64,000 nt of DNA from Shigella phage sb3. Below the pieces are notes generated by a model, which saw only the letters and a list, made by a program, of their open reading frames with translations, was not told the origin of the DNA and ran no database searches. This document shows, piece after piece, positions 31,928-32,322 of this stretch. How positions within the stretch are numbered: the stretch's first letter is position 1; each line of letters opens with the position of its first letter. The DNA is taken from sequence record PQ666541, one strand, 5' to 3'. The translations under genes and the position numbers were made by a program.

Positions 31928-32322
31928 TATAAATTCTCTTTTAAATGAAAATGCAGGACTTATTGGCATTGCCTGCGCAAGCCCTCAAGGGGTACTTAGG
32001 TTTTGAGTATTTACCGACAGGATAACCATAAACCCGTCAACATACCTTATAGCTCTTATCTGTTGCACACCGTTAGCTTAAAGGTTCCGGGTTCGATTTC
32101 TCGAGGATAAGATATATACTGATGGATATATAGGCCTTGAGGCGTACTCCCGATTAGCCATCACCTCGGGGTAGCATGCACTTGCCGCTATAAAATAACA
32201 TTCAAGAGGTACACCGTAAAACTGCCGGGGTCTTAAAACTATAATGATTCGCAAATCATTAATCAGACAGTTCGACGGCTCCTCGTTTTAACTTCACACT
32301 AAGGCAGTGACTCTCCAATAAA

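Follow-up and report, generated by a model that had tools for sequence, protein, structure and literature searches.

Folded RNA modules between rIII and 30.9 of Shigella phage sb3 and a mobile RNA domain among them

The rIII-30.9 gap

The sequence considered here, referred to as the window, is a stretch of 64,000 nucleotides (nt) of Shigella phage sb3 (sequence record PQ666541). Two of its genes, rIII and 30.9, are separated by a gap that an earlier note had described as a structured, non-coding region of the transcribed strand. Covariation across homologues bears this description out, and the comparison of homologous loci shows an island of folded RNA modules, located past the rIII coding sequence, in its 3' untranslated region, and in the 5' leader of 30.9. 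One of them, module A, is a large, pseudoknotted, covariation-supported RNA, new to Rfam, that behaves as a cassette mobile between phage families. The genome is Tequatrovirus-like, the 901 bases around the gap being 99% identical to Shigella phages sb2 and pSs-1, and all genes near the gap are located on the minus strand.

33656-34237, minus strand: gene cd
32719-33054, minus strand: gene 31
32323-32571, minus strand: rIII, lysis-inhibition accessory protein, the gene upstream of the gap (phrog_1457, E = 5e-44)
31934-31940, minus strand: ribosome-binding site of 30.9, AAGAGAA
31751-31927, minus strand: 30.9, a very basic protein of 58 amino acids (aa), the gene downstream of the gap (phrog_1427, E = 2e-31)

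The conserved start of 30.9 (MAKQ...) is at 31927 and the ATG located upstream at 31969 is not the start; the true non-coding gap therefore spans 31928-32322 (395 nt). The T4 reference record has a gap of 244 nt without annotation in the equivalent place; T4 is devoid of module A. The local enrichment in G+C was confirmed (0.439 versus 0.362 for the window, within the top 3.4% of 353-nt windows). The gap is the second-longest stretch of the window free of open reading frames (ORFs) and the sole GC-rich one. Further ORF-free stretches of 250-480 nt are found at 9794-10066, 25922-26175, 46035-46288, 46532-47011 and 61900-62184, all of them A+T-rich (GC 0.28-0.31).

Fold and covariation of module A

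The gap of phage sb3 holds six independently folding RNA modules on the minus strand, in the order D-E-A-B-C-G. Module A is defined by the following elements.

32046-32195, minus strand: module A, an RNA of ~150 nt with seven helices and a perfect four-way junction, supported by covariation
32187-32191 with 32049-32053, minus strand: helix P1, the closing stem, formed by the flanks
32184-32186 with 32133-32135, minus strand: helix P2
32164-32175 with 32142-32157, minus strand: helix P3
32126-32132 with 32113-32119, minus strand: helix P4 (TATATA hairpin)
32106-32112 with 32054-32060, minus strand: helix P5, which carries P6 and P7
32101-32104 with 32093-32096, minus strand: helix P6, with a GAAA (GNRA) loop
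32088-32092 with 32067-32072, minus strand: helix P7
32158-32163 (L3, UGAUGG) with 32120-32125 (L4, CCAUCA), minus strand: kissing loops, 6 bp

The four-way junction contains no linker nucleotide, and P2 and P3 make up a long arm with an invariant internal loop. The TATATA...TATATA hairpin of the earlier note is real and covaries; it is helix P4, at 32113-32132. The kissing interaction between L3 and L4 was spotted by inspection and is confirmed by the pair counts, the variants found elsewhere being CGAUGG/CCAUCG, CUAUGG/CCAUAG and CAAUGA/UCAUUG.

In a model-fitted alignment of 22 distinct copies of A, 99% of the cells are standard pairs, 26 of the 49 pairs are compensatory, the kissing loop included, and every helix shows covariation; at one pair of P1, for example, A-U occurs 11 times and G-C 10 times. 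Such an alignment leans towards the modelled structure, but the count based on MAFFT agrees: 17 of 44 RNAalifold pairs show compensatory double changes in an alignment of 19 copies that was not fitted to the structure. None of 500 shuffles reached the observed covariation, a control that is not a probability since the sequences are related by descent, and partners slid along the alignment gave 3-7 covarying pairs versus 24-26. The covariance check across aligned relatives advocated in the earlier note thus revealed conserved structure, in module A and in other modules as well. The long unpaired stretches CGGCAAG.GCAUG, GGCCUAU, ACCCGGA and GCUAACGGUGUGCAACAGAU (the longest, 20 nt) are invariant. 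About 42 cells hold G.U pairs, which the opposite strand would turn into A.C mismatches; A is therefore read as RNA from the minus strand, like the genes.

This strand specificity bears on a reading of the region as an element acting at the DNA level. This could be a promoter/terminator cassette (PeSL), a site of replication or recombination, or what a homing endonuclease or transposon-like element left as its footprint. PeSL cassettes, in which an early promoter and a terminator stem-loop flank variable ORFs, are known in T4-type phages (Arbiol et al. 2010, PMC2839356; PMC4122927), where they mediate genome shuffling (PMC2839356). The gap modules are likewise short, non-coding, recurrent in T4-type genomes and tied to modular shuffling, and the region is recombinationally plastic. 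They differ from PeSL cassettes in having no promoter, in being covariation-supported RNA folds and in being themselves the variable cargo. No sigma-70-type promoter was found in the gap, whose sole terminator-like site is on the plus strand (31981-31993); the genuine promoter and terminator pair is located after 30.9 (31747-31668). Helix sequences that vary with pairing kept and the strand-specific G.U cells point to RNA, and neither conserved terminal repeats nor target-site duplications were found at filled and empty sites. A DNA-level element is consequently very improbable.

Coding potential

The earlier note had reported no ORF of 30 codons or more, which holds for ATG starts. It does not hold once TTG and GTG starts are allowed, as ORFs of 58 aa (32078-32254, minus strand), 35 aa and 27 aa then appear in the gap, none of them conserved. 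A decayed gene or a small-protein gene could be proposed from the 58-aa TTG-start ORF and from the several GenBank records that call ORFs of 30-60 aa in the gap. Against it, all six frames of module A are interrupted by stops in 22/22 copies, and no conserved ORF is found there. The 58-aa ORF matches no PHROG family. The 41-aa ORF (KEN39-type) that some GenBank records annotate within module A is intact in 5 of the 22 copies; in phage sb3 it is interrupted at codon 7 by a stop. Copies of A differ by indels of 1-2 nt, substitutions in the helices are compensatory, and conservation exceeds that of the neighbouring genes in four out of five genera. The gene remnant suggested in the earlier note is rejected in view of these features, and a small-protein gene is extremely improbable.

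Automatic annotation places 'hypothetical proteins' of 30-60 aa in the gap (e.g. ON871820.1, OK274152.1, PP723046.1, OL362041.1, MZ892903.1), whose ORFs are not conserved. These ORFs have also received transferred names such as 'protein rIII', 'lysis inhibition accessory protein', 'glycogen branching enzyme' or 'baseplate wedge component'.

Comparison with known RNA families

The Rfam search proposed in the earlier note returned no family for the gap. No match was obtained with Rfam 15 (4227 families) at E<=10 overlapping the gap in a search of 31600-32700, or on modules A and B together (31990-32200), nor at E<=5 in eight homologous loci, and no family reached its gathering score in the 64-kb window. 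ARAGORN detected no tRNA gene in the window. A tRNA-like reading of the plus-strand string GGTTCGATT, which lies opposite the P6 hairpin of the minus-strand RNA, was rejected: ARAGORN is negative, the homologues read TCCGATT or TCAGATT, and the G.U pairs are specific to the minus strand. Possible likenesses to P1 of SAM-I (UCUUAUC/GAUAAGA), to the hairpin ribozyme and to the GTPase-associated centre of 23S rRNA were dropped, as no Rfam model scores. In full-text searches of the literature, no report of an RNA element located in the rIII-30.9 gap came up. Module A has the attributes of a new family of conserved structured non-coding RNA: it occurs in several lineages, with compensatory helices, strand specificity and no coding potential.

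The closest comparison is with the orphan structured RNA motifs of the Weinberg/Breaker type present in Rfam (PMC5737381, PMC10690425). Like A, these are intergenic, multi-helix, covariation-defined and phage-borne, with a conserved unpaired core and no assigned function. In contrast to them, A has no Rfam match, is limited to virulent phages of Enterobacterales (Tevenvirinae-like phages and one member of the Grimontviridae), has pairs of filled and empty sites and sits in an array of other shuffled RNA modules. A shares with the purine and lysine riboswitch aptamers a closing P1 of varying but paired sequence, a junction and a loop pairing (L3-L4) between neighbouring arms. Unlike these aptamers, it lacks an Rfam match and an expression platform, its position relative to the downstream gene is variable and one copy lies within a 3' untranslated region, before a terminator. 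Small structured RNAs without assigned function are already known from T-even phages, namely the T4 stable RNAs C and D (species 1 and 2) of the tRNA cluster. Those RNAs are present in T4, whereas A is not at the T4 rIII-30.9 locus.

This aptamer-like architecture could argue for the whole array, A included, being a cis-acting leader of 30.9, either riboswitch-like or protein-operator-like, whose state would be relayed to the ribosome-binding-site hairpins. In Straboviridae, A is always located 5' of 30.9 on the same transcript, and in several genera the last module, J, pairs with the Shine-Dalgarno sequence (UCUCC..GGAAGA). A would sense a ligand or bind a protein. The very basic gp30.9 is one candidate, since ribosomal-protein leaders offer an analogy; another is ribosomal protein S1, to which RIII binds (PMC9409239). 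gp30.9 has no Pfam or PDB relative and is thus not recognisable as an RNA-binding protein. A exhibits the closing P1, four-way junction, kissing loops and invariant core of an aptamer, but no constant expression platform: it is followed by B, C, H or D and its distance from the start codon varies, being 85-190 nt with B, C or H next. In phage Moon, A begins 3 nt past the rIII stop. T4 and many relatives express 30.9 without A, the copy in phage PKM.Lu.22.1 (see below) lies in a 3' untranslated region before module D and a terminator with no 30.9, and no Rfam riboswitch matches. Taken together, a cis-acting leader that includes A is unlikely.

A could also be a new self-cleaving or otherwise catalytic RNA that would punctuate or process the polycistronic transcript. 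It is a compact pseudoknotted fold that P1 closes, and many of the unpaired nucleotides in its junctions and internal loops are invariant. Two arms of its perfect four-way junction carry internal loops, which may be reminiscent of the natural hairpin ribozyme, the likeness dropped above. Phage hammerhead, twister and HDV-like ribozymes are mobile, context-independent and co-oriented with genes, as is A. On the other hand, no Rfam ribozyme matches at E<=10, no cleavage-site signature was identified and its 150 nt exceed most self-cleaving classes. We consider a ribozyme quite improbable.

Distribution and mobility of module A

Module A was found in ~400-440 (399-438) of 50,697 phage records, with one copy each. 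A covariance model built from the MAFFT alignment retrieved it in 21 of 50 sources (48 rIII loci, T4 and this window), including divergent copies in Yersinia phage fHe-Yen9-01 and in sequence L300. No A was found at the T4 rIII-30.9 locus even with the filters of the covariance model off; T4 records match the flanking modules of the gap and not A, and T2 and T6 match the gap solely as two pieces flanking A. The empty site of T4 reads GAAUGU^GAAUGAUG. In Tequatrovirus-like genomes, the junction between modules E and B (~32196) is either empty or occupied by A or by the unrelated module F. A is present in some and absent from others of near-identical genomes, and the ends of the indel coincide with the base of the closing stem P1.

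Klebsiella and Enterobacter phages that belong to other genera share the 135-nt core of A at 93-96% identity. Over its whole length, A is 84-93% identical to its counterparts in four other genera, compared with mostly 60-77% for the flanking rIII, 30.9 and gene 31 (64-76% amino-acid identity across genera for rIII). Two exceptions are the copy of A in EcS1 (70%) and the copy of 30.9 in CIP9 (90%). An identity above that of the flanking genes suggests that A is under purifying selection.

Outside the Straboviridae, a full-length A (139.6 bits, E = 1e-33) is present in PKM.Lu.22.1, a 76-kb phage of the Grimontviridae that has neither rIII nor 30.9. This copy carries compensatory changes of its own in P1, P3, P4 and P5. 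It is located amid replication genes, where a gap of 240 nt separates a phrog_6599 gene from the gene of an ECF-type sigma factor, and is co-oriented with these two; the order is stop codon, A, module D, intrinsic terminator. In the sister phage PKM.Hi.22.6 (97.7% identical) the site is empty and reads stop, GAAAUC, D, terminator. The two genomes thus differ by a clean indel of ~153 nt, namely A, ending at the base of P1.

A search of 5,426 E. coli genomes and of 72,556 plasmids gave nothing similar to A, and an origin from the host or from plasmids was rejected on this ground. Scans of metagenome and genome contigs with 15-mers and of viral contigs with a gapped pattern were too permissive, nearly all matches being due to chance; the sole real one is L048, a 166-kb T4-like contig. 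Overall, the comparisons show A to be an accessory, horizontally exchanged, self-contained conserved RNA domain.

The other modules and their mosaic arrangement

The other modules of phage sb3, and the copy of module I beyond rIII, are arranged as follows.

32601-32662, minus strand: copy of module I, a long hairpin with the conserved loop GUCGAAAGA, in the gp31-rIII gap (nhmmer E = 9e-7 against the Jiaodavirus I)
32286-32316, minus strand: module D, a small hairpin (stem UCAC/GUGA, 32294-32310) whose loop of 9-10 nt, URCCWWAGU, is conserved
32198-32285, minus strand: module E, four helices stacked into a long irregular hairpin, with the tip TAATGATT-CGCA-AATCATTA at 32242-32261
31997-32043, minus strand: module B, an H-type pseudoknot, both helices of which covary
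32033-32038 (GACGGG) with 32016-32021 (CCUGUC), minus strand: helix S1 of B
32024-32027 (loop GGUU) with 31999-32002 (AACC), minus strand: helix S2 of B
31976-31995, minus strand: module C, in which CUUG comes after the small G+C hairpin CCCCUUGAGGG (31982-31992); CCTCAAGG lies within it
31953-31976, minus strand: module G, a hairpin GCAGG/CCUGC with the conserved loop CAAUGCCAAUAAGU, which abuts the 30.9 ribosome-binding site on its upstream side

Module B was found in 37/37 gap sequences compared, T4 included. An A-rich linker of 13 nt, GGUAAAUACUCAAA, joins its two helices, and S2 changes in a concerted manner (GUUGGUU/AACCAAC, CAAGGUU/AAUCUUG, UAGUAGUU/AACUACUA, UGUGAG/CUCACA). In an alignment of 24 variants, the covariation score of B is 0.382, compared with 0.145 in shuffles (0/500 reaching it). 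With its stem, its loop pairing 3' of an A-rich linker and its position in an mRNA leader, B resembles the preQ1-I riboswitch and the T-even gene 32 operator pseudoknot, and the H-type pseudoknot with an A-rich 3' tail that is typical of preQ1-I is indeed found in B. It differs from both by longer stems, a 13-nt linker and the lack of any link to queuosine genes or gene 32, and it scored against neither PreQ1 nor any other Rfam model (31990-32200, E<=10).

Module E is limited to Tequatrovirus-like gaps, with a truncated form in L297. The 8-bp stem TAATGATT-CGCA-AATCATTA of the earlier note is real and covaries; it was placed about 6 nt off and forms the tip of E. Compensatory variants of E include CCGU/ACGG to CCAU/AUGG, CUGUCUG/CGGCAG to CUGUUUG/CAACAG or UUGUCUG/CGACAA and, at the tip in L282, UAAUGAUU/AAUCAUUA to UAUCGAUU/AAUCGGUA.

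Module C was scored in 30 of 37 gap types and occurs in T4 without A; one compensatory variant was observed (GCCU..AGGC in L300). The two complementary 8-mers of the earlier note both exist, CCTCAAGG at 31983-31990 and CCTTGAGG at 32135-32142 (1 nt off), but they do not form a conserved long-range helix. CCUCAAGG belongs to the internal loop of module A and CCUUGAGG is the small hairpin C. Hairpin C is unchanged in T4 and in many phages without A, and the loop of A varies without compensation. Both 8-mers are near-palindromes (CCU..AGG), so that their complementarity is built in.

Module G has a variant AACUGG/CCAGUU in L281 and L297 with the same loop. In other genera its place is taken by module I or by J, a hairpin that sequesters the Shine-Dalgarno sequence. 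Module I is upstream of 30.9 in Jiaodavirus and Moon; its closing stem covaries, reading GGUAGUC/GACUACC or GGGAGC/GCUCCC, and its inner pairing AUCU/AGAU or AACU/AGUU. The copy of I in the gp31-rIII gap extends the island of RNA modules to both sides of rIII.

Module D has the stem variants CAC/GUG, CGC/GCG, UGC/GCA and AGC/GCU across phages, and nhmmer found one copy in the window. It also occurs just 5' of an intrinsic terminator in the Grimontviridae 7-11 (L442, 436-524), PKM.Hi.22.6 (L441, 499-586) and PKM.Lu.22.1, between the stop codon and the terminator and upstream of the ECF sigma-factor gene. It is resident in this family, and the copy of Salmonella phage 7-11 has a compensatory stem change. 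The sequence common to Straboviridae and Grimontviridae is GGUGAUUYGCUACCUUAAGUGCRGCU. D may be drawn as a 23-nt mini H-type pseudoknot (GGUG/UACC and CGC/GCG; AGUG/UACU in some phages), the T4-type copy having A.G at one position of its first helix.

Syntenic rIII-30.9 gaps of 120-398 nt are found across Tevenvirinae-like phages of Enterobacterales. A local-alignment screen of 37 distinct gap sequences resolved at least ten recurring modules, whose order varies by lineage.

T4: D-E-B-C-G
This window: D-E-A-B-C-G
Other Tequatrovirus-like phages: D-E-F-B-C-G
Jiaodavirus: H-B-D-A-C-I
Moon: A-B'-C-I-J
Muldoon: B-A-C-J
EcS1: C-A-B-F-J

More distant T4-like phages have no modules, 30.9 being located ~10 nt after rIII (e.g. 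L302) or other genes occupying the place. The mosaic shows untranslated regions of T4-type phages to evolve through the shuffling of discrete RNA modules.

Module F (L267 132-179; L284 72-116) replaces A at the E-B junction of many Tequatrovirus-like genomes. Its outer stem covaries, and its inner hairpin reads CAGA/UCUG or CAGC/GCUG. F may be a derivative of B, as its GGUUAUCUGUC string resembles the loop of pseudoknot B.

The modules might also serve as a generic RNA 'armour' against Rho loading and RNases, or as RNase III/E processing sites, with no specific partner. An untranslated stretch of 395 nt would otherwise be exposed to Rho and RNase E. E and I, as long irregular hairpins, bear a resemblance, and no more, to the RNase III sites of T7 early mRNA, and the flanks of A are A/U-rich. 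Yet such a role needs neither single-stranded stretches of 20 invariant nucleotides, nor a conserved kissing loop, nor 84-93% identity across genera. The spacer to be protected exists solely through the modules, as illustrated by L302, and the A cassette is gained and lost as a unit. Generic protection or processing is thus of low probability.

Interpretation

The explanation that best accounts for these observations, to which we give a nearly even chance, is that of a mobile autonomous module A inserted within the structured leader of 30.9. Autonomy is favored because the fold and the invariant core are kept across different module orders and in a phage without rIII and 30.9, and because A is gained and lost as a unit. 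A would be made as part of the mRNA and possibly trimmed at its A/U-rich flanks. It would then act through its three-dimensional fold as an 'RNA gene', with a protein or a small molecule as partner and without specific control of rIII or 30.9. That A is an autonomous RNA which serves as a decoy, sponge or sensor by binding a conserved partner when Enterobacterales cells are infected is plausible though short of probable. The resident leader of 30.9, itself structured, would consist of modules B, C and G (I or J elsewhere), which probably set 30.9 translation or mRNA stability.

Several points weigh against a mobile autonomous RNA. The folding energy of the gap as a single sequence is unremarkable (z = -0.93 on the minus strand, -0.13 on the plus strand), so that the case for structure rests on covariation across homologues. 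The high identity of A across genera could partly reflect recent horizontal transfer and not constraint, the EcS1 copy being 70% identical. Outside the Straboviridae, A is present in a single record, and its independence from context amounts to one transfer event, seen in one genome pair, together with positional shuffling within Tevenvirinae. In the other ~440 records A is always in the rIII-30.9 gap, which also fits a function tied to the transcript.

A more specific proposal is that A is a stand-alone RNA gene exchanged horizontally by virulent Enterobacterales phages and a new class of functional RNA, acting as a decoy or sponge for a protein or ligand (e.g. in RNA counter-defence) or as a new ribozyme; it is possible but rather doubtful. 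If true, T-even-type phages would have in A their first recognised accessory gene made of RNA alone, and the rIII-30.9 gap would be a hot spot that collects and shuffles RNA cassettes. As a decoy, sensor or ribozyme, A would be a new kind of player in the phage-host conflict and also a compact, naturally modular RNA fold for structural work. T-even genomes are among the most studied, yet the gap is unannotated in the T4 reference record; the absence of A from T4 itself would account for its having been overlooked. Carriers of A include therapeutic candidates against Klebsiella, Shigella and E. coli, and the role of an RNA-only accessory element in a virulent phage is the question that A raises. 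At the minimum, the annotation is corrected, with the spurious small ORFs of the gap replaced by RNA modules.

The region downstream of rIII and 30.9

A further element follows 30.9.

31747-31726, minus strand: intrinsic terminator directly after 30.9, GAGGACUCCUUCGGGAGUCCUU and a U-tract

This terminator is followed by a promoter-like site TTTACA-17-TAGTAT, and the two (31668-31747, minus strand) have a layout as described for PeSL cassettes. Weak Rfam matches to Atu_C8 and Phe_leader at 31668-31747 correspond merely to the terminator. In L298 (IMG/VR contig 2706796796) the 30.9 frame downstream of rIII is seemingly disrupted or fused to a different downstream ORF, with modules C, B, D and F kept. 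Finally, 30.9 is 90% identical at the nucleotide level to its copy in Enterobacter phage CIP9 (L006), compared with 68% for the adjoining rIII and 76% for gene 31, a contrast that suggests recent recombination within the small 30.9 region.

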